This document shows positions 12,001 through 26,155 of a DNA stretch of 45,253 nucleotides, in pieces. The notes beneath the pieces were generated by a model. The model did not search any database. It was not told where the DNA came from and worked only from the letters and a program-made list of their open reading frames with translations. The first letter of the stretch is position 1; each line of letters starts with the position of its first letter. The position numbers were made by a program, and so were the translations under genes. The stretch comes from Candidatus Portnoybacteria bacterium RBG_13_40_8 (GTDB lineage Bacteria; Patescibacteriota; Minisyncoccia; RBG-13-40-8-A): positions 1-45,253 of the forward strand of contig MHMT01000012.1 in the NCBI GenBank assembly GCA_001819435.1, given 5' to 3'.

Positions 12001-14990
12001 GTATAGGAGATACGGTTCCTGGATACAAACTCTCTGTCGACGGCACTGCCTCAATCTCCGGAGGATTATATTTGAGCGACGCATATAATAATGTACTTCT
12101 CGGACCCGCTAATATTGGCACTACCTCCACTGGTTCTTATAATATATTGATAGGAAATTCTGTTGGCTCAAATGCGGATGATTTAGATTATTCTACTTTT
12201 ATCGGGTCATCCTGGACTGGTCAATATGCGGGAAATTCTGATCAAAGTGTTTTTATGGGATATTTTACGGGCACCTATGCTTCAGATTCTGGTGGTAGTG
12301 TTTTTATGGGAACCAGCGCAGGCGCGTATGCTGAAGATTCTGATTGGAGTATCTTTATTGGTAATAATGCAGGCCTTTTTGCTTCAATGTCGACATACAG
12401 CACAATATTGGGTGCTGGCGCAGGTGTATGGATTGGTGATGCTGATTACAATACTTATCTCGGCGGTTATGCGGGTCAATACGCTGGCGAAGGCGATAAT
12501 AATGTGTATGTGGGATACGGAGCAGGCCAAAATGCTTCCGGCAGCGCCAATGTATTTTTAGGTTATCTGGCTGGTCGCGATGAAACCGGTTCCAACCTTT
12601 TGTATATCGAAAACTCTGCTGGCACCACACCTCTAATCTACGGCGATTTCTCATCAAATTATGTTTCCATTTCCGATAATCTATATATCTCCAACAATCT
12701 CTTTGTTGACGGCACAGCTTCCATATCCATAGCTTCAATATCTCAATATGCAATTTTTGGTGATATTGCTACTCCATCATCACCAGGTCTGGGCATGGTC
12801 TTCCATGATACCGGAGATAATGAATTATTATATTATGACGGCACTGGATGGCAGAATCTGGCAAGTCCCAGCGCCAGCGGATTATCCGGCGGTTTACAAA
12901 ATTATATCGGTATCTGGAATGGCACGGACAGCATGACTTACGATACTGAATTCTACTGGGATACTACCAACAACTGGCTGGGTATCGGCGATATTACTCC
13001 TGATGCAATGTTGGACGTCAATGGCGGCGCTTCAATATCAGAGGATTTCTCGGTTGGCGATTCCTTATTCTATGTCAATGTTGGCTCTTCTTCCGTGGAT
13101 ATAGGTGCTGCCGGTTCAGATGTATATATCGGTACAGAAGGAGATACCTCCACAATCAATTTGATTATTGAAGGCACTGGTAATCTTGGTATCGGCGATA
13201 CTACTCCCGACTGGAGATTATCGGTTGACGGCACGGCTTCTGTTTCCGGCAATGCATATTTCCCGAATACGCCCAACGTTACTGATTTAAGAACCGATGG
13301 CAGCGGTATGTTATATGACGCTTCTGACATGCGCTTAAAGAAAAATATTACTGATATCGATAATGCTTTAAGTAAATTGATGTCTTTGCGCGGCGTGACC
13401 TACAATTGGAAAACCCTGGAAGAAGGCAATGACTACATTACTATGGACGGTACGATAATGCATATGGGCTTTATTGCTCAGGAAGTAGCGAGCAGTTCTG
13501 TCTCCGAATTAGCCTATAGCCATACAAGATCTGGCCAGGAAATCTGGGCAGTGAGAGAAGGTGAAATGACGGCTTTACTAGTTGAAGCAATCAAAGAAAT
13601 GAACAGTATTATTGATTTATCCGATGCCCCGATTGATTCTGCTTCTTTAACCATCAGTCAATTGGGTAATGTCGGCATCGGCGGTACTGCCTCTATCTCC
13701 GGAGATTTGTATGTTGGTGGTTTAGCCACCGAATCAGCCGCGTTTGTCTATGTTGATACCGAGGGCAAATTACACGCCGGCGATGCTTATCAGGATTTGG
13801 CCGAATTTATGCCTTTGGCTTCTCAAAGTTTTGAAGCCGGTGATGTAATCACTTCCCGACTGGCCACTGACGAGGAAAAAGCCAATGGATTGACTACTGA
13901 ACCGTTTATCGGAGTAAAATCATCTACTTCTTATGACCAGAATTTATTGGGAGTAGTTTCTTATTCCGATATTCCGGCTTTGGGAACCAAACTGAACAAT
14001 AACTACTTGCCGATTTCTTTGGCTGGTCGTGTGCCGGTTAAAGTTTCCACTCAAAATGGAGCAATTAAGGAAGGCGATTATCTTACATCTTCTACTATTC
14101 CGGGTGTAGCCATGAAAGCCACTAATGCCGGTCCTGTTATCGGCAAAGCGCTTGAACCATATGCAAATCCTGACCCAGCAGTTGTGGGCAGAATTTTAAT
14201 GTTCGTGAATTCAACCTGGTACGGTGGCAAATCATCAGAAATTGTGATTAATCCTGACGGAACGGTTGATGACAAAGTGACAGTTGAATCCGGAGATTTC
14301 TTTGGGAACCTGACTGCGAGCTTAAGACAATTGGGCGTGGATATTGCCGATGGTGTGATTAAAGCCACTAAACTGGTAGTTAATGAAGTTAAAACCAAAG
14401 TATTAAGAATCTCGGTTGAAAAAGATAAAGATGCTACTGTTGGCACAGCCATAATCCCAGCCCAGCAGATTGAATTCAGGGTAGAAAATAGTTTGGTGGA
14501 GGCCAATTCCAAGATATTTATAACCTTTACCGCTGATACAGGTGGCAGAACCTGGCACATTTCGGAAAAAGTTGCCGGAAACGGGTTTACAATTCGCTTA
14601 AGCGATGTCACGCCCGAAGAATTGAGTTTTGATTATTGGATAGTTCTTGTCGAAGGACAAGATCGCGGATCTACGCAGATTGACCCTGCTTCGCAGGATA
14701 CGCAGACAGACGCAGAGCCCTACTGTGGGGATGGGATACTTTATGCGGGTGAGGAATGTGATGACGGAAATTTGATTGATGGAGATGGATGCGATGCAAC
14801 TTGCATGACAGAAGTTGTGAGTGAAGAGCCATCTTCACCTTCTGGCGAAAATGAAGAGCAAGCGCCGGTTGAGGAAACTACGCCACCAATTGAAGAAATC
14901 ACACCGCCAGTGGAGGAAATTGTCGCACCGACAGAAGAAACAACTCCGTCATCTGAACAAGGCACATCGACAGAAGAAACAGTAATTTAA
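3..14990 (+). CDS. Giant repetitive surface/adhesin-like protein, 5'-truncated; six arrays of 17-aa G-x-x-A-G-x-Y-A repeats, VGIG(T/D)xxP repeats, Peptidase_S74-like chaperone motif, Cys-rich repeat, acidic Pro/Glu tail
   Basis: Frame is open from nt 3, so the true start is probably upstream of the window; SDMRLKKNITDI at 13323 matches the S74 'SDxRLK' motif; GRVPVKVS...GDYLTSS..PGVAMKA block; CGDG...EECDDGN...GDGCDATC at ~14724-14805 resembles the Myxococcus Cys-rich repeat. Confidence 0.85.
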   Translation, partial: EVGTGLFYVNTGSSSVQFGGTSTTSFVGPVSISEDLDVGSGQLFVDNSSGFVGIGSVSLAADAILTVRQQADSQGIKIFGYDDGDTRYGHMYMDSNNDFYIRTDTTSTHIIFSAGGSNTLMMDGDGDFQVGQSSYMARLINSQSGGTPVFSFSSDEDTGIGQMGPAVADFDADTLSLRGGGIALMQLGEYGNLPFVGIGTAATTSYTFAVDGTASISDDFYVGDNLLTLDVSEASVSSTGKWKLTTTETTGEGFYIDASSVTTGNGLLIEVDGTAMTSGKALQITRDGASMFNIGEWGDIYAAGQFSGSYLTMTSTTASYFTGPLGIGTTTPSTELSIVGTASISEDLWASGAFQFGGGELEATQSYSRLGGNDTGHGLDNAYDLLISGMLEVDGMTYFDGGTTFGSTASVTSDFSVGDSLFYVNVGTQSYQFGGTGTASFAGDIDMEGDLNVGNNDLYIDSSTGYVGIGTGASMSAKFNVAGTSTDNAYFFYNNADVGDTTNGQSLYVYRRAAEGDEYLRMYVDDSAEAIIETSMANLKFNTGGATIENWGPVNIGTNWYGSGVNYFITQYGYITAASTQKYIQWQVSDTTDTFNLTRQDDYIVGFNIGMPTSISDNLDVDGIVSISDGLYVDTFTSISDDLSVASSGYTIGDDYGPTLYIDTVNDYVGIGTTAPTTKLYIRGTDPEITLYESATGAIMSIQQGQAFGIVGPESASDLSLQTGGGSKIYIQHSGSYVGIGTYYPSVELSILGTASISQDLWASGAFQFGGGEITATASYSRLGLNNTGHGLDNAYDLLISGMLEVDGMTYFDGGTTFGSTASITGDFSVGDSLFYVNVGTQSYQFGGTGTASFVGPVNISQDLNVSEGDLFVDDSTGYVGIGTTNPLKKLSVSGNISGTQFDDYEDSSYYINPSAGDVSILVAGNVGIGTKSPDSLLDVAGQIIASSSYFTGLTQLTHASVSDDLELMGVASISASSVLFRPETNSTTFLQMASAAFVAGDDYPIFNVDTQNGRVGIGTAAPDSKLTISGSGTQNLRIISTDYNDAGVILQRGTYGTDAYSDWFIYDSGGTLKLDSYQSSSQNTRMTILTTGEVGIGDTAPGYTLSVDGTASISDNFYFGNDMLWSNRTGDLMMSSSSWIFGGDETTNSFTFEGIASLSGYLDFGALATPSTGLAAGRVFRYEDDNSLWYYNGSDWLDLTETGAGATGIPGGSGNEFQYRINGTTFGGAASLVYGGATSILSSASWDISGTNWNLDAIASISGGLYLSDAYNNVLIGPSTVGTTSTGSYNIFMGDAAGTYADEVSYGTFIGQNAGQSAINADYSFFAGWNAGQYASNSSDSFMVGRTAGQYAEDSYNSIFIGNWAGRYASQSTYSVMIGEQVGDYADDVDYSVFLGTNTGQYAGNSDNSIFIGNSAGQYASESGYSVFTGVYAGQYAENSYNSIFAGNWAGRYASQSIYSIMIGEQVGDYADDVDNVVFLGRLAGQYAADADNSIFMGQEAGQHASESQYSVFMGRDAGQYAKDSQYSVFIGDWSGQYASGSSFTFMSGQSAGADAADADNSIFMGQDSGAYAGYLDESIFMGHLAGTYASESSYSYFIGGAAGQYASISNNSVMVGYGAGQYFGTDNSADGRVTFIGDNAGNSAIDSDYSVMIGPGAGQYASESGGSVFIGSQTGDYAQNSDDSVFIGDWTGRYASLSTETVLVGPYAGDYAGDVDYGVFMGTGAGGYAINSDNSTFVGPWAGQSASESVSSVFIGIGAGQYAEDSDNSVFMGNGTGSYASLSTGTTMIGGAAGYYTGDADYNTYLGGYAGQYAGEGDNNTYIGYQAGENASGSSNVFIGFDAGSDETGSNLLYIENSAGTTPLIYGDFTNNYVSISNDLYTAGNLYTNGTASISGALTVDGTATSSFAGTIHIFKAESGIEANEYSDDFIIEANGDAGMSILTPDSSAGFINFGSPGGDVGAFLEYSYNSDNFGIGTNETGGRLIFYTDYYIEAMRIDANGDVGIGDTDPTYKLSVDGTASISDNFYFGNDMLWSNRTGDLMMSSSSWIFGGDATTNSFTFEGIASLSGYLDWGAIATPSAYAGRMFYSEENNSMWVYSGGWLEWGGGGGGGADSDWTINVNDMYSAVSGNVGIGDSVPDYKLSVDGTASISGGLYLSDAYFNTLIGPAVGTTSTNSFNIFMGDSPGQYADSVEYANFIGFYAGQYGINSDYSVFMGYWAGRYASDSYSSVFIGDAPGAYAEDSDYSVFIGTVAGLYASLSRESIFIGPEAGRYAGNADYNVYLGSEAGTYAGEGDQNVYLGYQAGRNASGSYNVFLGNQAGFNETGNDKLYIENSSGATPLIYGDFSSNYVSISTNLFTDNFYTSYASISSYAEFGQAATPSAPATGQLFHDTDNLLYYYDGTAWLNLTSTSAGGTIDGIGTENYITLWDDSDSLTNSILFQSGTSEILVSGSATFDGTASFSGDTTIGNNLFFADISEASISVAGAIEATGMILGNNIKTDTDLANLYLGTGIGSTTTSSYNIFIGDFTGAEADGASGSTFIGRQAGRYAVNTDTAVFIGGYAGQYASESNYSTFLGYQAGRYAEFSNGSTFVGQYAGYIASQSPNSNLLGNYAGADADNIDEVVFNGYMAGRFAGDSGYSTFIGSHAGEYASDSIDATFIGYAAGQYAEDSDWATFVGYNAGQYASLTLGSVMLGPGAGQYVGNADYDVYLGDSAGRYAGEGVNNVYIGYRAGEYASGSGNVFIGFDAGSDETGSNLLYIDNSNITTPLIYGDFSSNYVSISNDLYTAGNLYINGTASISDDFYVGNDSLFFDLSADTFYSSSSWGIGGTGLAFNLDATASISGDLTVTGDDVLFQPYTNGTDSFIIASSGWASGDDYGPLFNVNTTAASISMNGDLAVFKDFNVASGAIQHDYSSGITYIDSLNMGALSFDTDAGVVSWVDMPVATTAASIIESYTAQLDGNPMITVYGLTDGSGGVTSLGVGIGDTAPSYMLSVDGTASISDNFYFGNDMLWSNKTGDLMMSSSSWIFGGDATTNSFTFEGIASLSGYLDFGALATPTTGLAAGRVFHYEDDNSLWYYNGSDWLDLTETGAGATGIPGGSGNEFQYRVDATTFGGAASLVYGSATSILSSASWDISGTNWNLDAIASISGGLYLSDAYYNTLIGPADVGTTSTGSYNIFMGYRAGQYADEVGSANFIGYQAGRYAINADSSVFIGINAGMYASDSEDGVILGQQAGMYAEDSDKSVFIGSNAGQYASLSLDSVMIGEEAGRYTGNADNNTYLGSFAGLYAGEGDNNVYVGYDAGMNASGSANVFLGYLAGRDETGSNLLYIENYYDGTAWLNLTSTSAGGTIDGIGTENYITLWDDTDSLTNSIIYQSGTSEILVSGSATFDGYASISGDLTVTGDDVLFRPLVDGADTFTISSSGFVAGDDYAIFSVDTQNIAVGIGTTAPNALLHLKSIAPQIMFTDSDDGGDEFTQYLNGGILLVGYNNTDSVYNIAIGSDNLVGIRDVTPDYGLEVVASSADGYLAVSSDDDEAKNANIFLIDENGYVGIGDTDPIYKLSVDGTASISGGLYLSDAYYNTLIGPTTVGTTSTGSYDIFMGDAAGQYADSVEYANFIGVEAGQYGINSDYSIFIGGLAGKFASDSRQSIFIGGQAVGLYAENSDDSIMIGGYGAGMYASLSSYSLMIGTDAGQYAGNADYNTYLGAHSGQYAGEGDNNVYLGFQAGQNASGSSNVFIGYDVGSDETGSNLLYIENSAGTTPLIYGDFSSNYVSISSSLFTDNFYTSYASISSYAEFGQAATPSAPATGQLFHDTDNLLYYYDGSAWLNLASTSAGGTIDGTGTENYITLWDDSDSLTNSILYQSGTSEILVSGSATFDGLVSLSDEFTVASGMDIGGGDLYVDAYDGKVGIGTIGPISKLEVENANTGDNLYGLYVDQNEPDAYAIHTYADGGWGLRVQSALNTGTSYLLDIENSDGSILAVTAEGNVGIGDTVPGYKLSVDGTASISGGLYLSDAYNNVLLGPANIGTTSTGSYNILIGNSVGSNADDLDYSTFIGSSWTGQYAGNSDQSVFMGYFTGTYASDSGGSVFMGTSAGAYAEDSDWSIFIGNNAGLFASMSTYSTILGAGAGVWIGDADYNTYLGGYAGQYAGEGDNNVYVGYGAGQNASGSANVFLGYLAGRDETGSNLLYIENSAGTTPLIYGDFSSNYVSISDNLYISNNLFVDGTASISIASISQYAIFGDIATPSSPGLGMVFHDTGDNELLYYDGTGWQNLASPSASGLSGGLQNYIGIWNGTDSMTYDTEFYWDTTNNWLGIGDITPDAMLDVNGGASISEDFSVGDSLFYVNVGSSSVDIGAAGSDVYIGTEGDTSTINLIIEGTGNLGIGDTTPDWRLSVDGTASVSGNAYFPNTPNVTDLRTDGSGMLYDASDMRLKKNITDIDNALSKLMSLRGVTYNWKTLEEGNDYITMDGTIMHMGFIAQEVASSSVSELAYSHTRSGQEIWAVREGEMTALLVEAIKEMNSIIDLSDAPIDSASLTISQLGNVGIGGTASISGDLYVGGLATESAAFVYVDTEGKLHAGDAYQDLAEFMPLASQSFEAGDVITSRLATDEEKANGLTTEPFIGVKSSTSYDQNLLGVVSYSDIPALGTKLNNNYLPISLAGRVPVKVSTQNGAIKEGDYLTSSTIPGVAMKATNAGPVIGKALEPYANPDPAVVGRILMFVNSTWYGGKSSEIVINPDGTVDDKVTVESGDFFGNLTASLRQLGVDIADGVIKATKLVVNEVKTKVLRISVEKDKDATVGTAIIPAQQIEFRVENSLVEANSKIFITFTADTGGRTWHISEKVAGNGFTIRLSDVTPEELSFDYWIVLVEGQDRGSTQIDPASQDTQTDAEPYCGDGILYAGEECDDGNLIDGDGCDATCMTEVVSEEPSSPSGENEEQAPVEETTPPIEEITPPVEEIVAPTEETTPSSEQGTSTEETVI
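14664..14716 (+). repeat. ACGCAGAT-decamer element with central GC hairpin, in frame in the giant gene (copy 1)
   Basis: CGCGGAT-CTACGCAGATTGA-C-CCTGC TTC GCAGG-ATACGCAGAC-AGACGCAGA; matches copies at 19746 and 25562. Confidence 0.8.
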
Positions 14991-15142
14991 TTCTCAATTT
15001 CGAATTCTGAATTTCGAATCAATTTTAAATGACTTAAATTCGAAACCCCAAGCAGTACAGCAGAGCTGACTACGGGGCAGGCAGTTTCAAAATTCAGAAA
15101 TTCTGTAATTCAATCAAAATTCAAAATTAAAAATTCAAAATT
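14989..15142. repeat. Heptamer palindromic element E1 with a GC-rich hairpin as central cargo
   Basis: Left arm AATTCTC AATTTCG AATTCTG AATTTCG AATC AATTTTA AATGACTT AAATTCG; centre 15046-15084; right arm ends CAAAATT CAAAATT AAAAATT CAAAATT. Confidence 0.85.
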
Positions 15143-15148
15143 ATAACC

Positions 15149-15763
15149 GTGTCTAAAAAACTAATCCTCATTATTATCATAATCATTGTGCTTTCTGGCG
15201 CGATATATTTCGTTTTCTTAAATAAAAATTCCCTTCAAAGCGGGCAAGTATCCAATGGTATCAATGAATATCAACAAGTATCCGGCAACGAACAAACTTT
15301 CAAGATTACTCCAAGCGATAATAAAGAAAACAGTATTTATACCGACTCGCAATATAGATTTTCCTTTGAATATCCCAAAGATTTTACAGTAACAAAATTT
15401 CAGGAAGGGGAGGACGGTGATACAATATTGGTTCAGTATCGTGAGCAAAGCGAGCAAGTATCAACAAGTATCAATAAGTATCCGGATGGTAGTAGTTTCC
15501 AGATTTTTATTTCCCCTTTTGACGAGCCGGGACCATTGACCAAAGAAAGAATATTACAGGATTTGCCTGATTTAATCATAAAAAATCCCGAGCAAAGAGT
15601 TTTGAAAAACGGCGCCGTGGCTCTTGTCTTTTTCAGCGAAGAGCAGTCACTCGGCGAAACCAGAGAAATATGGTTTATTCATAATAATCACCTTTACCAG
15701 ATTACAACGAATAAGGAATTGGATGGATTGGTGGCAAAAATTCTTGAAACCTGGCGGTTTTAG
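15149..15763 (+). CDS. Membrane-anchored PsbP-like protein
   Basis: N-terminal hydrophobic anchor; YTDSQYRFSFEYPKDF start and 'ILETWRF' end resemble PsbP-related proteins. Confidence 0.6.
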   Translation: MSKKLILIIIIIIVLSGAIYFVFLNKNSLQSGQVSNGINEYQQVSGNEQTFKITPSDNKENSIYTDSQYRFSFEYPKDFTVTKFQEGEDGDTILVQYREQSEQVSTSINKYPDGSSFQIFISPFDEPGPLTKERILQDLPDLIIKNPEQRVLKNGAVALVFFSEEQSLGETREIWFIHNNHLYQITTNKELDGLVAKILETWRF

Positions 15764-15765
15764 TG

Positions 15766-16243
15766 AAATTCGAATTTAGAATTTTGAATTTCGAATCAAT
15801 TTAAAATGATTTAATTATTCAAACTTTATGACCATGAATAAAAATAATTACGATTTAGAAGAAAGAACCGCGAAATTCGGAGAAGATATTATTGAATTTT
15901 GTAAATCTATAAATCAAGACGCTATTACTAAACCGATTATTAGCCAATTGATTCGTTCGGGAACGAGCGTAGGAGCTAATTATATGGAAGCTAACGCCGC
16001 TGCTTCTAAAAAGGATTTCAAAAACAAAATATTTATTTGCAAGAAAGAATCTCAAGAGACCAAGCACTGGTTAAGAATGATGGCGAAATCTAATCCGGAA
16101 AAAACAGAAGAAATACGTAAGTTATGGAAAGAATGCCAGGAATTAACTCTAATTTTCGGAAAAATCGTTTCGTCATTAAGAAAGTAATTTGAAATTAGGT
16201 TATTCGAATTTGAATCAAAATTCAAAATTAAAAATTCAAAATT
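15766..16243. mobile_element. Putative gene-carrying element E2: heptamer left arm (15766-15824), 4HB gene, right arm (16188-16243)
   Basis: Arms are imperfect inverted repeats of each other and closely match the arms of E1, E3 and E4; mobility is inferred, not shown. Confidence 0.55.
15828..16187 (+). CDS. Four helix bundle protein (23S rRNA IVP / Avd-like family)
   Basis: DLEERT..F, QLIRSGTSVGANYMEA, SKKDF..K..I..KE..ET.HWL motifs. Confidence 0.9.
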   Translation: MTMNKNNYDLEERTAKFGEDIIEFCKSINQDAITKPIISQLIRSGTSVGANYMEANAAASKKDFKNKIFICKKESQETKHWLRMMAKSNPEKTEEIRKLWKECQELTLIFGKIVSSLRK

Positions 16244-16266
16244 AAGCCCAGCATTTATTAAGCCGA

Positions 16267-16389
16267 AAATTCGAATTTCGAATTTCGAATCAATTTTAAA
16301 TGAATTAATTTCAAATTAAAAATTAGTCGTGTTTCAAAATTAAAAAATTAGATAATTCAATCAAAATTCAAAATTAAAAATTAGAAATT
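16267..16389. repeat. Heptamer palindromic element E3 (empty)
   Basis: AAATTCG AATTTCG AATTTCG AATC AATTTTA AATGAATT AATTTCA, short TAAAAATTAGTCGT centre, right arm as in E1. Confidence 0.85.
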
Positions 16390-16399
16390 AAAGCCAAGT

Positions 16400-18499
16400 A
16401 TGAAAAAGTTTTTATATTTCATCATATTCACGTTTGGACTGCTAATAGCCCAGAATGCTTTTGCTAGCATAATTTTACGTCCCGTTTTTCATACTGGTCT
16501 TGTTGGCTATTGGTCTTTTCAGGAAGGCGCGGGAAATAATGTTTATGACAAAAGCGGAAAAGGAAATACCGGCACCTGGAACGGAACAGGAACCTCTCAC
16601 TGGGCAGACGGAAAAATCGGCAAAGGGGGAAGCTTTAACGGGACAGATGATTATGTTGCACTTTCTAATTCTTCGGATTATAAACCCACAAGCAGAGTAA
16701 CTATTTCAGCTTGGTTTAAAGCAGATGACTGGGATTCGAGTTTTGTAATTACAGGCATTAGTGTTGCCAACATGCATTTTTATATTGCTGAGGGCGGTGG
16801 TTATGAACATCCCACCATATATCTTACCTTTGCTGGCGCAGGCGCTCAGATGGCGCAATGGGCAAACCAAAGCTTAAATGTCGGACAGTGGTATCATATT
16901 GCCGGAGTATATGATGGTAATGATTTAATCCTTTATTTTGACGGTGTAGCCAGGAAAGTAACCAATATTGGCGTTGATACGATTAGCCAGCCAGCATCAA
17001 CTATGCTTATAGGTAGATTAGGAGCTGATTATTCCAATGGATTGATCGACGAAGTACGGATTTATAACCGCGCCTTGGATGAAAGCGAAATTTCCCGGCT
17101 TTATAAATTATCCCAGCCGAAAATATCAACTGTCGCCATGAATAATGGCTTGGTCGGCTACTGGGATTTTCAGGAAGGCGCGGGAAATAATGTTTATGAC
17201 AAAAGCGGTTATGACAATGACGGCATCTGGAACGGCACTGGTTCTCACTGGGCAGACGGCAAAATCGGCAAAGGGGGAAGTTTTAATGGGACCGATGATT
17301 ATGTTTATGTCACTGAACCTACAGGAGAATTAAACCTTGTAAATAACTTTACTTTAAGCGCCTGGATTAAGCCGGAAGATTCTTCGGGCACCAGGGCTAT
17401 TGTGGGCAGGTATTACCAATACGTCTTGTGGATTGAAAATGATAACACGCTTTCCGCCATAATTCGTAACTCGTCCGGCGATTATGAATATCCTACCAGC
17501 GGAACCGCCGTAACCGAAGGTGTATGGAGCCACGTTGCTATAACTTTCTCCGATAGCGTGGTCACTTTTTATATTAATGGAGTAAAAATCATAACAGACT
17601 CTATTGCTACTTCACAGATATTTTCAGACACGAATTATTATATGCATTTCGGAATTTATAGCAGTCTAGTCAGTCTGCGTTTTCCCGGAATCATCGATGA
17701 AATTAGGGCTTATAACCGTGTCTTAAGCGAAGGTGAGATGAGCCGGCTTTATAAATTATCCCAGCCGAAAATCAATGCTTCGCAAAACAACCAACTCACC
17801 AATGGCTTGGTCGGTCTTTGGTCATTTAATGGTTCTGATATTGATGGTAATGAGGCCTATGACCGCAGTGGTCAAGGAAATACCGGCACCATTGTGGGTG
17901 CAACAAAAACTATCGGCAAAGTGGGGCAAGCCATGGAATTCAACGGCACCAGCGATTATATCGCAATTACCGACGATTCGATTTTCGATTTAAACGCCAG
18001 CAACAGCTATTCCTGGTCATTCTGGATAAAACCGCAAAATTTAACCAATCCTAATACTATATGGTCTCAGGACCTCGGAATTGACGATGACACATATGTT
18101 CTTATCTATGCGGGCAGTTTTGATGTTGAGCGGTGGGGACCCGTAACCAATGGCATAGGAGCAGGATGGGTAAATCAAGGCAGTTCGGGCGGTGAACAAT
18201 TAATAGTTGAGACCAATAATAATGTTCTTACCTTAAATACTTGGCATCATGTTGTGATTACCTATACTTATTCGACAAACGCCCTAACCAGATTTAAGAT
18301 TTATGTTGATGGCGCTGATAAGACAACGGGGGCAGAGCAGGGAGGAACATCTATTGAAAATATTAGTCCTGCATATACTAGAATTGGTTCGAATCAACAA
18401 TACGGCGAATATTTCGACGGTATGATTGATGAAGCACGTTTCTACAACCGCGCACTGACAGCGCAAGAGGTGTTGAGATTATACAATATGGGACACTAA
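16400..18499 (+). CDS. Secreted protein with three LamG/concanavalin A-like domains
   Basis: Signal peptide ending AFA; three GLVG(Y/L)W.F ... W.H ... IDE.R.YNR.L units; the starts of domains 1 and 2 are near-identical in DNA (~16496-16655 vs ~17146-17302). Confidence 0.9.
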   Translation: MKKFLYFIIFTFGLLIAQNAFASIILRPVFHTGLVGYWSFQEGAGNNVYDKSGKGNTGTWNGTGTSHWADGKIGKGGSFNGTDDYVALSNSSDYKPTSRVTISAWFKADDWDSSFVITGISVANMHFYIAEGGGYEHPTIYLTFAGAGAQMAQWANQSLNVGQWYHIAGVYDGNDLILYFDGVARKVTNIGVDTISQPASTMLIGRLGADYSNGLIDEVRIYNRALDESEISRLYKLSQPKISTVAMNNGLVGYWDFQEGAGNNVYDKSGYDNDGIWNGTGSHWADGKIGKGGSFNGTDDYVYVTEPTGELNLVNNFTLSAWIKPEDSSGTRAIVGRYYQYVLWIENDNTLSAIIRNSSGDYEYPTSGTAVTEGVWSHVAITFSDSVVTFYINGVKIITDSIATSQIFSDTNYYMHFGIYSSLVSLRFPGIIDEIRAYNRVLSEGEMSRLYKLSQPKINASQNNQLTNGLVGLWSFNGSDIDGNEAYDRSGQGNTGTIVGATKTIGKVGQAMEFNGTSDYIAITDDSIFDLNASNSYSWSFWIKPQNLTNPNTIWSQDLGIDDDTYVLIYAGSFDVERWGPVTNGIGAGWVNQGSSGGEQLIVETNNNVLTLNTWHHVVITYTYSTNALTRFKIYVDGADKTTGAEQGGTSIENISPAYTRIGSNQQYGEYFDGMIDEARFYNRALTAQEVLRLYNMGH

Positions 18500-18629
18500 A
18501 ATTTCGAATTCTGAATTTCGAATTTCGAACCAAATTCGAATGAATTAATTTCAAATTAAAAAATAGTCGTGTTTCAAAATTAAGTAATTCTGTAATTCAT
18601 TCAAAATTAAAAATTTAAAATTCAAAATT
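18500..18629. repeat. Heptamer palindromic element E4 (empty)
   Basis: Nearly the same arms and TAAAAAATAGTCGT centre as E3. Confidence 0.85.
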
Positions 18630-18634
18630 AAACT

Positions 18635-21600
18635 GTGCCTGAAAACTTTAAAAAACTCATCAAAACAAAAAAGACCCCGATAATCATCGGAACTATTTTA
18701 GCTATTTTTGTTGCCGTATTTTTGATTGGTCTAATCAGTACTTCTCTATCCGGTGGGTCGGCAATTAAAGTCGTTTCCGCGCAAAATGTTTTTCAGTCCG
18801 ATGAAACTCCGCAATTTATTTTTATCTACAAAAAACAGGCAAATATCTTTAATAGGATTCTTGTCAGTATTAAGAATCTATTCAGTAGCGAGAATAAAGA
18901 ACTTGAGACCACGGTGAGAATTTTCAATAATTATGGTCAGCAGATTGATGATCTTAATCCTCAAGTTAAACAAGAACCCAACGGAAAATTTACTGTTGAT
19001 TTGGACCATTCAAGATTTCAGCAGGAACTAAGACCCGGAAAATACAAAATGAAATTTGAAATCAAAGACCCCTCGAATTCCTCGGGGCAAGTGGCGACAT
19101 TTGAACAGGATTTTCGCTGGGGAGTTTTGGCAATTAACACCAATAAATCAATCTACATGCCGAACGAAGAAGTTTATTTGCAATTCGCGGCATTGAAAGA
19201 TAATGGTAAAACCGTATGTAACGCAAATTTACGTTTGCAAATCCAAACCCCAAACTCAAAAACTCAAATACTCTCTACTAATGATGGAACAATTAAATAC
19301 AGCGGAGAGTGTAAAGGCGATAATGTCACCAATGTTCCCGACTATTTTGCATATTATAATGTAAGCAAAAAGGGTAAATACGAAATGAAACTGATTAATT
19401 TGGACAATGGTTTTGAAATTACAGATTATTTTGAAGTCCGGGATTCAGTAGAGTTTGACGTGGAAAGAAGCGGTCCGACCAGAGTCTGGCCTTATGCCAA
19501 ATACGAAATTAAAATAAAAATCAAAGCAAATTCTGATTTTCAAGGAGAAATTGTTGAAACCGTGCCCATGACTTTTGCAATAGAGGAAAAATTGGGCGCA
19601 AAACAAGAACCGAATATGGATAACTATACCAAAACCATTACCTGGCAAACCGAAATCAAAAAAGGCGAGACAAAGGAATTCATTTATACTTTTGACGCGC
19701 CCAATGTCAGCCCGTATTTTTACCTTATTGGTCCGTTAAAAATGTATCAGCGTGAATCTGCGTATCCCGAAGGGGAAAATCAGCGTTTATCTGCGGTTTT
19801 TGCGGAGCAAAGACAATGGCAGATTGCCGCGGATGCCGAGACAGAGGTATATATCACTTATGACGAAACTCCCAACGGTTATTCTTGCGGAAGTAATTGC
19901 TTTCTGGTGCCGGAAGATTGGAATAGCGCCTCCAATAGCGTTGAAGTTATCGGCGGCGGCGGCGGAGGAGGAGACGGATCTAATAAATACGGCGGCGGCG
20001 GAGGTGGCGGAGGCGCTTATGCAAGGGGCGTTAACCTATCTTTTACCGCAGCAGCGCAGGTAGACTTCGGCGTGGGAGCGTCCGGCTCAGGAGGGAGTGG
20101 CGATGGCAATGGCACAGCTGGCGGTGATACATACTTTAATGCCTTAACTTTTGCGGCTTGCGAAACCTTGGGTTCTGCTAGCGGTGGCGGTGTTGGCTGC
20201 GTTGGCGCTAATGGTGGCGGTTTTGGCTATGGCGGAAATACCATGACTGGCGGAACTGGTGGGTTTAGCGTTGTTGGCAATGACATAGTAGCAAGCGGTG
20301 GCAATGGTGGTCTTGGGTGCGGGGCTACCGCTGCTGGTGGCGGAGGAGGAGGTGGTGGAGGCGCAGGCGGACCAAAAGGAGATATGCTTGGCAATAACGG
20401 TGGTATAGGTGCAGGAGACGGAAGCCCATCTTTAGGTGGTGGTGGTGGCGGTGGTGGTGGTGGTACGAATGGAGCCGCGCCAACACAGAGTGGAAATCCT
20501 ATGACATGCGGCTCTTATGCTGTCGGTACTGATGTGGGTGGCGTAGGAGGTGCTAATTGGGCCGGAAACGGTGCTGGTGCCGGGGGAGACCCTAATGGTA
20601 CAGAAGGTACGGTCGGAGGTGGTGGTGGAGGAGGCGATGATGGAGGTACGGGTAATGTAGGTGGCGCTGGTACAGAATGGACTGCTTCTTATGGTTCTGG
20701 CGGTGGTGGTGGAGGAGGAGGAGATGGCATGACGGGTGGCTATGGCGGCAAATATGGCGGCGGAGGAGGAGGCGGAGAAGCATGTACTGCCGCTACTTGT
20801 TACGGAGCAGGCGGCCTGATTCACATTGCCTATACTCCTGCGGTCAAAACTATTTCCGGTAATTGCAAAAAAGTAAACCAGTCAGACAATTGCGCTGTCT
20901 GCACCGGTTGCGTAAAAGCGGCAATAGAAGGAGTTGTGGATGGTGCAAGTGGGAATATTGATGCTTCCGGCGTTTGGACAATTACGCCGGCAACTACCCT
21001 GGCTGTTGATGATGTGATTGCGGTTTTCATCAATGATCAGGCAGTTGCCAGCAGAGCAGTGGCAGTCACCCGATACAACGGCTCCAGTAATGTTAGCGGC
21101 ATGCAGCTCTACGCACAGCATCTGGTTATTGGAAGCAATGATAACCGAACTGCCTCAAACAGTGATTTGGCTCTTTATGATTATTCTTCTTCCGGTGGCG
21201 ATGCCGACCTTTTCTTTGATGTTAATGCCAGCAATCAACTTACCGGTTGTATTGTTGATGGTTGCGAGAGCATGGAGCTTTATATTATGGCAAGCAATAA
21301 ATACACGCCAAGCTCAACCAGCGCAACATTTGTGGAGATTCACGATATTGAAATTGACGGCACTTTTGATATGACCCTTGGAACCGGCGCAAATTATGCA
21401 TCAATTTCCGGTTCTTGGAATAATGATAGTGTTTTTACTGCTGGAGATTCTACTATCTTTTTTATTGCTTCCGACAGTGATATTACGGGAATTCCGGAGG
21501 TCGTTTCCGCTTCAGCCGGTTCCACGAATTCATTTTATAACCTTACTTTTGGTGACAGCGCCACTTCGTCACTTACTGGTCACTGGGATTCGGCAGGAGA

Positions 21601-23101
21601 CATTGGTACTTTGACGGTGACAATGCAAATTGACCTTGCTGCTGGCACTTTACATATGAATGGTGCCGATAATGTAAGTCTTGCCGGAAATTTTTACACT
21701 GGTTCCAATGGCATCTATACTAAAAGCACAGGTACATTTACTTTTAATAAAAACGGCACCGCACTGTGGGGAGACTACAGAGGGACAAAATCCGATATGG
21801 GCGCAGTGGTAATTGACGGCGGTGGTTCGGCTACAACCGTTAATCTTCTTCAGAGCGTCAAGGCAACAAGCATAAACATTACTGGCAGCGACACGTTTGC
21901 TCCCAATGGTGCGTATACCTTGACTTTAACCGGCGCTGGCGCGGCTTTTACGAACTCTGGCACTTTTACTTGTTCTACTAGCACAATTGTTTATGAAGGA
22001 ACATCAGCTACTACTGTGGCCGCGTTAAACGGCACAAACCATTATTATAATCTCACTGTTGGTTTATCTACGGATACTGGCACGTTTTCTTATACTGCTG
22101 ACGGAGAAATTGAAGCATCGGGTTCAATGACTTTAATTGCCGGTTCTTCGGGCGTACATACTTTTGATATGAGCACCTATAATTTATCCGTAGGCGGCGG
22201 CGCAGCCAGTACCGGCGGAATAGCGGTTCCTGCTGGAACTGTATTTACTCAAACTTCGGGAACTACCAAAGTATATTCTTCCAGCGGCTCGGCAACAATC
22301 GGTGGCACAGGCACAACCAAATTTTATATTTTTCAAATCGGCAATGCTTCAGATGGCGCTACTTACACATTTAATTTAGGTGGAGACATAGGGGCATCGA
22401 GCAGTTTTACTCTTGCGGCCGGAGCTAGTCATGTTTTAGGCTTATCTTCTTATGAATTCGGGGTTTGGGGAAATTTTACCCTTGGCACAAGCGCCAGTTT
22501 AAGCGCCCAGACCGGGACTTTGAACTTTGGTAATAACACTTCCATGACCCTGACTTGTTCTACTGGTTGTGAGCCGTATAACCTGACTATTAATAAAACT
22601 GCAGCCGGAGATTCGGATGACAATGTTACTTTGGGGGCCGACCTTGTTGTTAGAAATATTTTGACCATTACTGATGGGGAGTTAGTTCAAGGGAATAATA
22701 ATGTTACAGTTGAGGGCACAAGCGCGGTTTCGGTCGCTGCGGCCGGAAAATGGAACAATATCGGCACTGGTGATTTGACTTTAGGCGGCACTTTTGCCAA
22801 TTCCGGCACAGTTGTTTTCAATACCAGTAATAATGGCTGTACCGGTGGCGGCATAGCTGATGATATCGCAATTACTTCTACTGCCGGCGGCACGCAAAGA
22901 AACTGGACTTCAACCTCACCGATTCAAATGTTTAATGTTTCAGTTACCGATATGACCAGCACTGCGGACATTATTGCTTATTCCAGCACCTTCAGTAATG
23001 TCGGTCCCAACTGGGCCCTTGTCAAATGCAGTGATTATTCTACGCCCTATAACAGGATTAAAGGCAGTACCAGAATAAAAGGAGGAACGAGGATAAAATA
23101 A
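18635..23101 (+). CDS. Large membrane-anchored/secreted protein with Gly-rich region and beta-strand-rich C-terminal half
   Basis: N-terminal TM segment; poly-Gly tracts ~19950-20815; T/S/G-rich passenger-like C-terminus with paired Cys; ends RIKGSTRIKGGTRIK. Confidence 0.8.
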   Translation: MPENFKKLIKTKKTPIIIGTILAIFVAVFLIGLISTSLSGGSAIKVVSAQNVFQSDETPQFIFIYKKQANIFNRILVSIKNLFSSENKELETTVRIFNNYGQQIDDLNPQVKQEPNGKFTVDLDHSRFQQELRPGKYKMKFEIKDPSNSSGQVATFEQDFRWGVLAINTNKSIYMPNEEVYLQFAALKDNGKTVCNANLRLQIQTPNSKTQILSTNDGTIKYSGECKGDNVTNVPDYFAYYNVSKKGKYEMKLINLDNGFEITDYFEVRDSVEFDVERSGPTRVWPYAKYEIKIKIKANSDFQGEIVETVPMTFAIEEKLGAKQEPNMDNYTKTITWQTEIKKGETKEFIYTFDAPNVSPYFYLIGPLKMYQRESAYPEGENQRLSAVFAEQRQWQIAADAETEVYITYDETPNGYSCGSNCFLVPEDWNSASNSVEVIGGGGGGGDGSNKYGGGGGGGGAYARGVNLSFTAAAQVDFGVGASGSGGSGDGNGTAGGDTYFNALTFAACETLGSASGGGVGCVGANGGGFGYGGNTMTGGTGGFSVVGNDIVASGGNGGLGCGATAAGGGGGGGGGAGGPKGDMLGNNGGIGAGDGSPSLGGGGGGGGGGTNGAAPTQSGNPMTCGSYAVGTDVGGVGGANWAGNGAGAGGDPNGTEGTVGGGGGGGDDGGTGNVGGAGTEWTASYGSGGGGGGGGDGMTGGYGGKYGGGGGGGEACTAATCYGAGGLIHIAYTPAVKTISGNCKKVNQSDNCAVCTGCVKAAIEGVVDGASGNIDASGVWTITPATTLAVDDVIAVFINDQAVASRAVAVTRYNGSSNVSGMQLYAQHLVIGSNDNRTASNSDLALYDYSSSGGDADLFFDVNASNQLTGCIVDGCESMELYIMASNKYTPSSTSATFVEIHDIEIDGTFDMTLGTGANYASISGSWNNDSVFTAGDSTIFFIASDSDITGIPEVVSASAGSTNSFYNLTFGDSATSSLTGHWDSAGDIGTLTVTMQIDLAAGTLHMNGADNVSLAGNFYTGSNGIYTKSTGTFTFNKNGTALWGDYRGTKSDMGAVVIDGGGSATTVNLLQSVKATSINITGSDTFAPNGAYTLTLTGAGAAFTNSGTFTCSTSTIVYEGTSATTVAALNGTNHYYNLTVGLSTDTGTFSYTADGEIEASGSMTLIAGSSGVHTFDMSTYNLSVGGGAASTGGIAVPAGTVFTQTSGTTKVYSSSGSATIGGTGTTKFYIFQIGNASDGATYTFNLGGDIGASSSFTLAAGASHVLGLSSYEFGVWGNFTLGTSASLSAQTGTLNFGNNTSMTLTCSTGCEPYNLTINKTAAGDSDDNVTLGADLVVRNILTITDGELVQGNNNVTVEGTSAVSVAAAGKWNNIGTGDLTLGGTFANSGTVVFNTSNNGCTGGGIADDIAITSTAGGTQRNWTSTSPIQMFNVSVTDMTSTADIIAYSSTFSNVGPNWALVKCSDYSTPYNRIKGSTRIKGGTRIK
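19746..19795 (-). repeat. ACGCAGAT-decamer element (copy 2, reverse orientation), in frame
   Basis: Reverse complement reads CGCAGATAAACGCTGATTTT-CCCCTTCGGG-ATACGCAGATTCACGCTGAT. Confidence 0.75.
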
Positions 23102-23277
23102 ATTGACCTAATTGCTCTAATTGACCCAATCTAGAGAATTAACCTAATTATTCTAATTGACCTAATTAACCTAATCAAATCCCAAATCCCAATAACTAAA
23201 TCCCAAATTTAGACATTAGGCATTTAGGCATTGGGCATTGATTAGAATAATTAGAAATTAGGTTAATTAGAAATTTT
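23101..23277. repeat. Palindromic element E5 with 9-nt outer and 7-nt inner units
   Basis: Eight AATTGACCT-like 9-mers, AATC, AAATCCC-like 7-mers; right arm has AGGCATT-like units, GATT, AGAATAATT/AGGTTAATT. Confidence 0.85.
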
Positions 23278-23325
23278 AAAACAAGTAGTTTTTGCTGTTT
23301 GTTTTTTTATTTTGACTTTTTGTTA

Positions 23326-23334
23326 TGGTAGAAT
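23326..23334 (+). promoter_or_regulatory. Putative extended -10 promoter
   Basis: TG-G-TAGAAT, 6 nt before ATG 23341. Confidence 0.5.
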
Positions 23335-23340
23335 GTGTTT

Positions 23341-24737
23341 ATGCTAGCAAAACTGGAAAAATATTTATTCTACGCCTTTCTTTTTTTAATTCCCCTGCAA
23401 TTGCGAGCGACGATTTCTTGGCAGGGGAGCGAGTGGGATTCTGTTTTTTTATATTTAACCGATTTATTATTAATCGGCTTTTTATTTTTCGCGATTATCA
23501 ATAAAAGAATATCGTTCAGAAAAAGCGGTATTCTTTTATATTTATTTTTGGGACTTGCTTTAATCTCCATATTTGTTAGTTCGGATAAAGGGGTTAGTGT
23601 TTATCGCTTTATAAAATTACTGGAATTCGTAGCTCTATACATATATATGTGTAGTCAATTCAAAATTCAAAATTCAAAATTCAGACAATTTTATCTGTTA
23701 TTTTGTATTCGGCTGTTTTCCAGGCAATTTTAGCCATTGTCCAGTTTTTTAAACAATCGAGTTTGGGTTTGAAATTTATTGAAGCCGGTCAATATCTACC
23801 TGGCGCGCCGGGAGTGGCTACTTTTATTTCCGGCAACGAGAAAATTATGCGTGCCTACGGCTCTTTTTCTCATCCCAATGTCTTGGCCGTATTTTTGTTG
23901 TTGGCTATTTTTTGTTTTTATTATTTATGGATTAAAGGATTCAATGGTCCCCGGTCCCCGGTTACTAGTTACTTGTTACCGGTTACTAGTTACTTATTAC
24001 TGGTCTTTGGATTATTTTTGACTTTTTCCCGCGGAGCAATTCTGGTTTTTCTGTTTATTAGTTTTACATTTCTCTTAACCAGATTTTTTCAGTTGCGGCA
24101 ATTATATCATACCGAAGAAAGATTGCTCGCCGGGAAAAAATTGATGATTTTAGCTTCATTTTTCGTGTTTTTTTCTTTAATCAGTGGTTTGATTGTCCTG
24201 CCCTACTTTAAAACCCGCTTTACGAAAATTTCTCTTGAAGAAGAAGCGATTGACCTCCGATTTTTTTACAATAAAATGGCTCTGTCTATGATAAAAGACA
24301 AGCCGTTTTTGGGAATCGGTATCGGTAATTTCGTTAATTTTTCCCGTAATTATCCGGCATTTTTAAGAGCAGCCGCCAAACTTGCCGCTTCCGGCGGTTT
24401 GACCGGTGGACAGGTTCCCGAATGGATTTATCAGCCAACCCACAATCTTTATTTATTGATTGCTTCGGAAATCGGAATTTTGGGCGCGTTAATCTTTTTA
24501 ATATTTTTATTTAAGAAATTTACTTACGGGGTTGGCCAGATTTTTAAAAATCTCAACGAAATCAATCCTTTGTTTTTTCTTTTTATCGGATTTTTGATTC
24601 TTGCCTTAAGCGACCATCTTTTCTGGACCCTACAGTCGGGAGGAATAATATTTTGGCTATCTTTAGCGTTATTAGAAAATCCAAACTATTTCAAAATCCA
24701 AACTATTTCAAAACAAATCCAAAATCCAAATGTTTAA
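23341..24737 (+). pseudogene. O-antigen ligase (Wzy_C) family membrane protein split by a frameshift at a (CAAAATT)3 tract; possibly phase-variable or an assembly artefact
   Basis: ORFs 23335-23733 and 23703-24737 form one multi-TM protein with RAYGSFSHPN, TFSRGA, PFLGIGIGNF and HNLYL..ASEIG motifs. Confidence 0.75.
23947..24002 (+). repeat. In-frame heptamer tract (GTCCCCG)2 plus (GTTACTA-like)6
   Basis: Encodes GPRSPVTSYLLPVTSYLL. Confidence 0.85.
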
Positions 24738-24799
24738 AAATTCAATCATTTGAAATTGATTTGGAATAATTTGAGCTTTGAGATAATTTGAAATAATTT
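24677..24799. repeat. Palindromic element E6 overlapping the ligase 3' end
   Basis: (AAATCCA AACTATTTCA)x2 AAAC AAATCCA AAATCCA, with a complementary-type right arm TTTGGAATAATTTG...GAGATAATTTGAAATAATTTT. Confidence 0.75.
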
Positions 24800-26155
24800 A
24801 TGCAATATATTTGCGATTTTCACATTCACTCCAAATACTCCCGCGCTACTTCTAAAGAAACAAATATTGAGAATCTGAACAAATGGGCGCGCATCAAGGG
24901 CGTTGATGTTTTGGGAAGCGGAGATTTTACCCATCCACTTTGGCTGAAAGAATTGAAAGAAAAGCTGATTCCAGCCGAAAAAGGGCTTTTCCGTTATAAA
25001 GATAAAAAAATAAAAAATAATCATAATGGATTTTTGATTAACGGAAACAATCATCAGCCGGAGACGAGATTTATTCTGACTACCGAGATTTCCAGTATTT
25101 ATTCCAAGGGAGGGAAAACCAGAAAAATTCACAATATAATTTTTGCTCCTAATTTTGAGGCAGTGGAAAAAATTAACACCCATCTGGGATGGATTGGTAA
25201 TTTAAAATCCGATGGTCGGCCGATTCTGGGATTGGATGCCAAAGAATTGGCAAAAATTGTTCTGAATATTTCCGAAGATTGCTTGATTATTCCTGCCCAT
25301 GCTTGGACGCCCTGGTTTTCTATTTTCGGTTCATTTTCCGGATTTGACTCGATTGAAGAGTGCTTCGAAGAATATACAAAATATATTTATGCTATTGAAA
25401 CCGGATTATCAAGCGATCCGGAAATGAATTGGCAGTTAAGTAAATTGGATAATATTACCTTAATTTCTAATTCCGATGCTCACAGTCCCGCTAAAATTGG
25501 CCGCGAGGCCAATATTTTTGAAGGCGAGAAAATAGATTATAATTTAATTGCTAACGCAATTAAACGCAGATCCACGCAGATTGAACCCCGACAAGTCGGG
25601 GATACGCAGATAAACGCAGAAAAAGAGTTACGATTGGTTAAAACCCTTGAGTTTTTTCCCGAAGAGGGAAAATATCATTGGGATGGCCATCGGAATTGCG
25701 GAATTGTTTTCAGCCCCGATGAATCGTTTAAATACAATAATGTTTGCCCGCGCTGCGGAAAACCATTAACCATCGGAGTAATGAACCGAGTCCGCCAGCT
25801 GGCTGACCGGCAAATAGGCGAAAAACCAATAAATGCCATTCCTTTTCAAAGACTGATTCCTCTGGAAGAGATAATTGCCGATGTAATTGGCATTGGTGTA
25901 GGCACTAAAGGAGTTAATGAACATTATAAAAACTTGATTAAGGTTTTTGGCAACGAATTCAAGATTTTATTGGAAGTCAGAAAAGAACAAATTGCCTCTG
26001 TCAGTTTGCCGGAGATTGCCGAAGGCATAGACAAGGTAAGACAGGGCAAAATTTCAGTATCCCCCGGTTATGATGGAGAATATGGGAAAATCAGTATTTT
26101 TGGCGATAACGAAGAAAGACCAAAAACCATCGGCAGCCAAGAAACCCTTTTTTGA
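24800..26155 (+). CDS. Endonuclease Q family / PHP-domain protein (related to the N-terminal domain of some UvrD proteins)
   Basis: DFHIHSKYSRATS, AHAWTPWFS, ETGLSSD, SNSDAHS, GKYHWDGHR.C, CPRCG, PGYDGEYG. Confidence 0.85.
   Translation: MQYICDFHIHSKYSRATSKETNIENLNKWARIKGVDVLGSGDFTHPLWLKELKEKLIPAEKGLFRYKDKKIKNNHNGFLINGNNHQPETRFILTTEISSIYSKGGKTRKIHNIIFAPNFEAVEKINTHLGWIGNLKSDGRPILGLDAKELAKIVLNISEDCLIIPAHAWTPWFSIFGSFSGFDSIEECFEEYTKYIYAIETGLSSDPEMNWQLSKLDNITLISNSDAHSPAKIGREANIFEGEKIDYNLIANAIKRRSTQIEPRQVGDTQINAEKELRLVKTLEFFPEEGKYHWDGHRNCGIVFSPDESFKYNNVCPRCGKPLTIGVMNRVRQLADRQIGEKPINAIPFQRLIPLEEIIADVIGIGVGTKGVNEHYKNLIKVFGNEFKILLEVRKEQIASVSLPEIAEGIDKVRQGKISVSPGYDGEYGKISIFGDNEERPKTIGSQETLF
25562..25620 (+). 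repeat. ACGCAGAT-decamer element (copy 3), in frame
   Basis: AAACGCAGAT CCACGCAGATTGA-A-CCCCGAC AA GTCGGGG-ATACGCAGAT AAACGCAGA. Confidence 0.85.

Follow-up and report, generated by a model that had tools for sequence, protein, structure and literature searches.

The stretch analysed here (the window) is a contig of 45,253 nucleotides (MHMT01000012.1; C12) from the 690-kb, 33-contig assembly of Candidatus Portnoybacteria bacterium RBG_13_40_8 (G000), which is given as 100% complete. It contains three copies of a repeat made of decamers around a GC mini-hairpin, each read in frame within a different gene. We consider it probable that these copies are gene-less solo arms of a family of selfish nuclease cassettes. 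The copies, their hairpins and the open reading frames (ORFs) that hold them are:

14664-14716, + strand: solo arm, copy 1; sense, with G/A at the variable core letter; in frame in the ORF at 3-14990; peptide RGSTQIDPASQDTQTDAE
14685-14697, + strand: mini-hairpin at the centre of copy 1, CCTGC-TTC-GCAGG; GCGAAGC type on the opposite strand
19746-19795, - strand: solo arm, copy 2; antisense to its host gene, with mixed A/T cores; in frame in the ORF at 18635-23101; peptide YQRESAYPEGENQRLSA
19765-19776, - strand: mini-hairpin of copy 2; (T)CCC-GAA(G)-GGG(A) on the + strand, CCCC-TTC-GGG on the arm strand
25562-25620, + strand: solo arm, copy 3; sense, with 4/4 cores ACGCAGA; in frame in the EndoQ-family ORF at 24800-26155; peptide RRSTQIEPRQVGDTQINAE
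25586-25601, + strand: mini-hairpin of copy 3, CCCCGAC-AA-GTCGGGG; the same type occurs in arms of genome G010

All three copies have the same layout, namely two decamers, a GC stem-loop and two more decamers, with the core (N)CGC(A/T/G)GA(T). Their alignment contains 35 invariant columns, which span the four decamer cores around the stem-loop. A first-pass annotation of the window had reported these copies, and its coordinates, the shared motif, the three differing stems and the C-GAA-G reading of two hairpins on the opposite strand were all confirmed, with the TTC loop lying on the strand that reads ACGCWGAT. The words are over-represented: ACGCWGAT occurs 8 times in the window versus 1.73 expected and ACGCAGA 9 times versus 2.63 expected, and none of 100 shuffles reached either count. 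Each copy lies in a long ORF whose translation gives the peptide already reported, and the hosts are indeed unrelated. Copy 1 lies in a giant protein (at least 4995 aa), copy 2 in one of 1488 aa and copy 3 in an EndoQ-family protein (match to EndoQ, PDB 5zb8, E 2.4e-52), where it is located between the PHP and zinc-finger regions. The giant frame (3-14990, + strand) runs off the 5' end of the contig and contains 255-nt tandem repeats at 4046-4570.

Related proteins without the repeats indicate that at least two of the copies are additions to their hosts. Among 120 EndoQ homologues, the closest non-self sequence (P0001, 88% identity) and many others do not have the peptide, so it is not ancestral, in line with the earlier proposal that it belongs to an insertion. 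One homologue (P0003) carries the peptide with a hairpin and two others (P0020 and P0007) have hairpin-less or shorter versions, RRPTQIKTQINAE and RRSTQIGAE; the closest homologues bear the source names Paceibacterota and Patescibacteria, which, together with the genome size, indicate a bacterium of the CPR (candidate phyla radiation) type. At this site, EndoQ has 30 residues in the same-family genomes G003, G008 and G002 versus 46 in G000, a net difference of 16 codons or 48 nt (T259-E274). The 1488-aa protein has 23 residues in the same-genus genome G001 and the same-family genome G007 versus 39 in G000, also 16 codons. Judged from these comparisons of sequence, copies 2 and 3 are true insertions of 16 codons. 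No target-site duplication was readable in three empty/filled comparisons (EndoQ, the 1488-aa protein and the GT4 glycosyltransferase described below).

The EndoQ gene shows further irregularities in relatives. One contig of G001 (C30, L075) starts exactly at EndoQ residue 276, the next after the arm in G000, and that assembly probably broke at the same repeat. The EndoQ orthologue of G002 (C23 20725-23238, L074/L076) is a single open frame of 850 aa whose two matching halves (residues 1-171 and 164-451) lie ~1.2 kb apart, a large in-frame insertion at another site. In homologues P0019, P0021, P0040 and P0035, the loop that holds copy 3 contains other repeat-derived peptides (DTNYEL.., HTNDTN.. 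and NQREIKENQREI); these look like arms of other words, which would make the loop a recurrent landing place.

A scan of the whole genome for clustered cores identified six arms and no more: besides the window copies there are three, all on contig C4. Block shuffles gave 0-5 loose clusters. Further copies therefore exist in the genome, and neither of the two findings that the first-pass annotation had named as refuting its proposal was obtained. All three C4 arms lie within one 565-aa GT4 glycosyltransferase frame and are read through. The first (+) and second (-) are inverted and, at C4 30101-30607, flank a complete PDDEXK_3 domain that is itself read in frame (PF13366 profile positions 2-116 of 117, E 6.1e-31; GxxExxY, TIGR04256, in NCBIfam, 104 bits versus a cut-off of 35). 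This domain is the genome's sole match to PF13366. In the third copy, one and a half decamers of a (+) arm stand ahead of a (-) arm. The window copies share the word, the 2+2 layout, the central hairpin and the reading phase with the arms of the nuclease-bearing C4 copy, and the peptides RRxTQI..DTQINAE and xQRxSAY..NQRVSA are common to both. Because the inverted C4 arms bracket the only PF13366 domain in the genome, we interpret the window copies as solo arms of a nuclease cassette. The earlier view of dispersed, once-mobile repeats lying in frame in unrelated genes, comparable to Rickettsia palindromic elements (RPEs), is supported, but not the view of each copy as a complete mini-element: each is one arm of a larger inverted structure. 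Its scheme of arms plus variable cargo likewise has to be rescaled: the decamers and hairpin together make up a single arm, and what the full element carries as cargo is the nuclease gene.

Related sequences were also found in metagenomes, where one locus (L140) is probably the same sequence as C4. Copy 3 is identical in loci L160 and L202, copy 2 has orthologous filled copies in L168 and L174, and copy 1 has orthologous copies in L169 (same hairpin) and L182 (different stem). Among metagenome contigs over the window (four runs, contigs only), none skipped an arm, a result that is uninformative on polymorphism; the lone signal, at 25591-25595, was cross-mapping of a C4 arm, with a loose end reading the GT4 flank.

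We then characterized the arms on a larger scale. An arm comprises two decamers, a centre and two decamers; the centre is 1-2 extra bases in many lineages and a GC mini-hairpin, between the second and third decamers, in the source's order and in many metagenome sequences. An arm finder detected 97 arms in 65 metagenome stretches (71 of them unique), excluding, here and in the counts of polarity and reading phase below, L147 and L197, which have long word arrays of another layout, and 64 of the 97 lie inside frames of at least 150 aa. By context, these arms are distributed as follows:

Solo arms: 36 without and 17 with a hairpin
Arms in pairs: 17 without and 11 with a hairpin
Arms bracketing a ~400-nt gene: 4 without and 12 with a hairpin

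The first-pass annotation had linked the hairpins to HUH (REP/IS200-type) enzymes, in which case a Y1 transposase recognizing a GAA-triloop hairpin in single-stranded DNA (ssDNA) would move the mini-element. The C-GAA-G mini-hairpin is a very stable type of DNA hairpin, and the arm strand has a TTC loop, which reads C-GAA-G on the other strand, in 15 of 26 true hairpin spacers (6 of 32 spacer rows were left out as non-hairpin: L147 twice, L179:5415 and L197 three times). However, 57 of the 97 arms contain no hairpin, and the gene bracketed by arms, here and in other phyla, belongs to PF13366, a GxxExxY domain of the PD-(D/E)XK nucleases. Moreover, a search with PF01797 gave 0 matches in G000 at its stated completeness of 100%, while the same search scored in 6 of 14 control genomes; since there is no match, we regard this explanation as very unlikely.

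The stems of the arm hairpins are alike in shape and not in sequence, and they appear to be exchanged, as was first proposed from the window copies. The copy 1 orthologues in L169 and L182 have the same flanks but stems that differ at three pairs, each altered on both sides; because the L182 copy keeps the flanks and differs in the stem, the hairpin is interchangeable. An alternative explanation of this variation is that the GC hairpin is itself a mobile palindromic element that nests in pre-existing decamer arrays, which would act as a landing pad. Elhai et al. (2008) reportedly described such an arrangement in Nostoc, where small dispersed repeats (SDRs) are tiny hairpin repeats inside tandem heptamer arrays; we know of no nuclease linked to SDRs. 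The stem difference between L169 and L182 would fit, as would the presence or absence of the hairpin at one EndoQ site (without in P0020 and P0007, with in the window and P0003) and in the GT4 site 3 pair (without in G007, with in G010). Similar GC hairpins with GAA or TTC loops are also found in a second repeat family of the genome. Outside that family, however, no arm hairpin was seen free-standing in the genome. The stems share shape only, and because they have no sequence in common there is no hairpin element 'sequence' to transpose. Gene conversion and template switching at quasi-palindromes are established mutational mechanisms, and either accounts for the exchange without a separate element. 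We therefore consider a mobile hairpin unlikely, although less so than an HUH transposase.

In the second repeat family, inverted CACCCCGTTAAA / TTTAACGGGGTG words enclose a single GC hairpin or two of them, often with GAA/TTC loops. The family occurs at the following sites:

C3: 64795-64822
C11: 302-316
C13: 20398-20410 and 39463-39477
C19: 5531-5543
C20: 30634-30650
C32: 6532-6548

A match between the copy 1 stem and the C13 hairpin at 20398 did not exceed chance by a rough estimate and was dropped.

Comparison of the GT4 gene across relatives revealed the cassette in several states at the same positions. At site 1, a ~160-codon insert is missing from nine relatives, and the states observed at sites 1 and 3 are:

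GT4 site 1, empty: 9 relatives
GT4 site 1, gene-less pair: L166
GT4 site 1, partly deleted pair: none seen
GT4 site 1, full cassette: G000, L165, L184, L191, L192 and L201
GT4 site 3, empty: 6 relatives
GT4 site 3, gene-less pair: G007 (no hairpins) and G010 (hairpins)
GT4 site 3, partly deleted pair: G000, L165 and L184
GT4 site 3, full cassette: L157

The nuclease of L157 belongs to the same subfamily as the site 1 copies and its right-arm peptide is that of G000 site 1; one cassette lineage is therefore present at two GT4 sites in different genomes. At the RecG site, L016 has just the arms and the cassette is full in L044, L046, L056, L155 and L179. Full, gene-less and trimmed forms thus share sites.

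The cargo domain has the features expected of a nuclease. Across 30 aligned domains, E23, D62, E72 and K74 are invariant and Q86 and Y90 are also kept, and D62, E72 and K74 preserve the PD-(D/E)XK catalytic motif, D ... (D/E)xK. An AlphaFold 2 model of the domain (pLDDT 93.9) aligned best to 1y88 in VIA-align (Z 8.9), followed by restriction-endonuclease-like folds, Hjc and Cas4. Foldseek matches in the PDB were weak (best E 0.019) and were all to PD-(D/E)XK nucleases, and a sequence search of the PDB with the nuclease returned nothing significant (best E 0.43).

The arms are also regular in how they are read. Among the 71 unique arms, none of the 24 in sense orientation has more than one T core, whereas 18 of 21 antisense arms have at least two, and the A/T asymmetry is seen as well in 5 of 7 arm pairs outside ORFs. 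Antisense arms use a single phase in 18 of 20 cases and sense arms two phases in 22 of 24, and from this uniform phase come the recurring peptides TQINAD/TQINAE and NQRxSA. Such uniformity could indicate that the repeats are retained because they serve the host, whether through a linker peptide or through a structural signal in DNA or RNA, and solo arms with hairpins are conserved in related metagenome sequences (L160/L202, L168/L174 and L169/L182). On the other hand, close orthologues function without arms, the hosts are unrelated enzymes (EndoQ, GT4, UvrD, LeuRS, FolD, release factor and aldolase) and arms occur in both orientations. Solo arms also fold no better than shuffles: as ssDNA, the three window arms have z-scores of -0.23, +0.80 and -1.24, and only the mini-hairpin forms. 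We consider retention for host function highly improbable. Of the hairpin-bearing pairs folded as ssDNA, L189 gives a four-way junction (z -6.2) and L154 a long stem (z -11.9).

To describe the wider family, we searched related genomes and metagenomes for the arm pattern. It was found in 4 of 60 relatives (reversed control, 0 matches), always as two abutted inverted arms of ~125 nt (pairs overall, ~110-130 nt), and in 65 metagenome stretches, whose loci include near-duplicates. Hairpin arms are present in 6 of 16 genomes of the order, a small sample. A stricter pattern occurs in 20 stretches of one-genome-per-species contigs compared to ~0.2 expected by our own arithmetic, which assumes equal base frequencies. 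The record names for these are Jorgensen-, Wolfe- and Saccharibacteria, Paceibacterota, Acidobacteriota, Bacteroidota, an Ardenticatenaceae bacterium and a Methanobacteriota metagenome-assembled genome (MAG). The same ACGCWGAT words flank the PF13366 gene of the Ardenticatenaceae bacterium (L107) and, in the archaeal MAG (L111), a truncated PF13366 gene.

PF13366 itself is present in 71 of 301 genomes of the class, and among the 122 matches listed, 23 lie in open frames of at least 500 aa. Thirty PF13366 loci of the class are mostly flanked by inverted short-word arrays, with a word that varies by group (CGCNGA, ACGAAT, CACTGA, GCTGAT or ATCCTG). The domain is in frame in LepA, RecG, an AsnB-like protein or GT4 at 13 of the 30 loci, and inverted CGCNGA arms are found at 12 of these 13. 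All 13 in-frame domains form one group (support 92/87) in a 42-sequence tree, on which word type clusters (3 label changes versus an average of 11.4 after shuffling; none of 500 shuffles gave so few). Arms alone extend the range of in-frame hosts to UvrD, LeuRS, starch synthase, FolD, release factor, class II aldolase and an M23/YkuD protein. One metagenome frame (L187 3-2624, - strand; 874 aa from stop to stop) matches leucyl-tRNA synthetase together with Ser_hydrolase (285-448) and NUDIX (605-675), and contains either further domain insertions or neighbouring genes read in one frame.

These observations suggest the following model. The full cassette is a GxxExxY frame (PF13366/TIGR04256, PD-(D/E)XK fold) between two inverted ACGC(A/T/G)GAT decamer arrays, with an upstream arm in sense that has A or G at the variable letter and a downstream arm in antisense that has mostly T. 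In the lineage that lies in frame in coding genes, arms and nuclease would be translated within loops of the host protein that tolerate extra residues, the arms encoding the putative linkers RRxTQI-hairpin-DTQINAE (sense) and xQRxSAY-hairpin-NQRVSA (antisense). The nuclease is predicted to recognize the phased words and cut at or between the arms, after which repair would copy the filled element, with the arms serving as homology. This predicted sequence of events is a tentative proposal, which we hold to be possible and somewhat less likely than its alternatives taken together. Solo arms would be decay relics left after loss of the nuclease and the partner arm, and hairpins may be exchanged by gene conversion between arms or by template switching at quasi-palindromes.

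Several points weigh against this interpretation. Nuclease activity and cleavage at the arms are something we infer from association, and all GT4-resident nucleases have Ile in place of the family's signature Tyr; because of this replacement, the genome's only copy of the nuclease may be inactive. No remnant of a partner arm was seen at copies 1-3, and for this reason GT4 site 3 is the single intermediate behind the idea that pairs decay to solo arms. Copy 1 (14664) cannot be shown to be an insertion, because it lies in a low-complexity, hypervariable linker (36 aa, compared to unrelated linkers of 34 aa in G005 and 40 aa in G002). At the other two sites, filled and empty versions differ by 48 nt net, yet codons that resemble native ones overlap the first decamer and leave the exact borders ambiguous. 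The count of sense arms that avoid T is partly circular, since reading ACGCTGAT in sense creates a TGA in one frame, which breaks the ORF from which orientation is called; four decamers traverse all three reading frames, so part of the polarity is forced. Finally, L107 has ACGCWGAT arms but sits elsewhere in the tree, and word and protein clade, as far as this tree indicates, are correlated but not one-to-one.

We next compared the cassette to known systems. RPEs are ~150 bp long, lie in frame in many unrelated genes and are translated at apparently tolerated positions (PMC10969869). As that review describes them, they resemble the repeats studied here, which are likewise short and occupy the coding frames of unrelated genes in a reduced genome. 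The two also differ, in that our units are 48-59 nt as solo arms or ~110-130 nt as pairs, are built of decamers plus a mini-hairpin and reside in a non-rickettsial genome. In addition, the review (PMC10969869) names no cognate enzyme for RPEs, whereas here the arm belongs to a nuclease cassette whose words recur across phyla. REP/REPIN-RAYT systems, as portrayed in PMC3116915, similarly combine many gene-less hairpin repeats with a rare enzyme gene in inverted repeats, and the pair is the common form without a gene. Going by the same portrayal, they differ in having an HUH Y1 enzyme rather than a PD-(D/E)XK enzyme and in lying between genes rather than inside reading frames (PMC3116915).

The ShiLan domain of phage methylases and endonuclease-bearing inteins offer a further parallel, in that a selfish nuclease sits in a conserved gene, leaves the frame intact and recurs at a site (PMC11855218). 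By the account of ShiLan given there, however, its HNH enzyme is read out of frame and has no repeat arms (PMC11855218). Inteins splice out, whereas a Pfam scan of the 565-aa frame gave only the glycosyltransferase and PDDEXK_3 domains and no intein splicing domain. Miniature inverted-repeat transposable elements invite comparison with the pairs, which have inverted arms; the window copies are single, and the parent carries a nuclease and not a known transposase.

Intervening sequences (IVSs) of 23S rRNA that bear an ORF (PF05635, '23S_rRNA_IVP') are similar in placing a small ORF between inverted short-word arrays. Their cargo protein and words are different, and classical IVSs are cut from rRNA, while nothing suggests removal from mRNA here. 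The window has such an ORF of its own (PF05635, 119 aa, 15828-16187, + strand, E 2.6e-16), which lies between heptamer arrays at:

15086-15142
16215-16245
16270-16290
16363-16392

This ORF with its arrays looks like the 'heptamer family' of the first-pass annotation and like a parallel to the decamer/GxxExxY cassette. In G010, a PF05635 ORF (E 8.7e-40) flanked by CCCTAAT arrays adjoins a decamer arm pair (L005 1729-2109). Decamer arm pairs also occur inside metagenome 23S rRNA genes (L179 5560-7931 and L200 7422-12190). The large-subunit rRNA gene of L200 is 4769 nt long versus a 2925-position model, with ~1.8 kb of insertions, and L179 has a group I intron at 4752-4999.

A 2012 survey of the PD-(D/E)XK superfamily gave the function of PDDEXK_3 as 'Unknown' and reported multiple transfers (PMC3424549). 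In the literature searched, we found no published description of GxxExxY/PF13366 word-array cassettes; the hairpin-bearing half-arms, the arm polarity and the hairpin exchange are new. More broadly, and with some hesitation, we propose that GxxExxY proteins might drive an undescribed class of mobile DNA that spans phyla. The nuclease would recognize phased 10-nt words in its own inverted arms, which on pairing would form a long stem or, in this order, a four-way junction with two mini-hairpins, and it would spread by breaking and copying into arm pairs. One lineage of this class would have evolved arms translatable in a single frame and colonized the loops of housekeeping proteins in genomes that have almost no intergenic space. 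The cassette interpretation of the repeats gives the large orphan family PF13366/TIGR04256 a genomic role and accounts for odd peptides in housekeeping enzymes of the candidate phyla radiation (EndoQ, RecG, LepA, UvrD, LeuRS, FolD, release factor and glycosyltransferases), which annotators and structure modellers should treat as selfish insertions. If the nuclease does read its own arrays, it would amount to a small DNA-cutting module programmed by sequence and, beside REPIN/RAYT, to a second case of an enzyme with a dependent population of mini-repeats. For selfish DNA that inhabits genomes of ~0.7 Mb, the in-frame lifestyle is a noteworthy solution.

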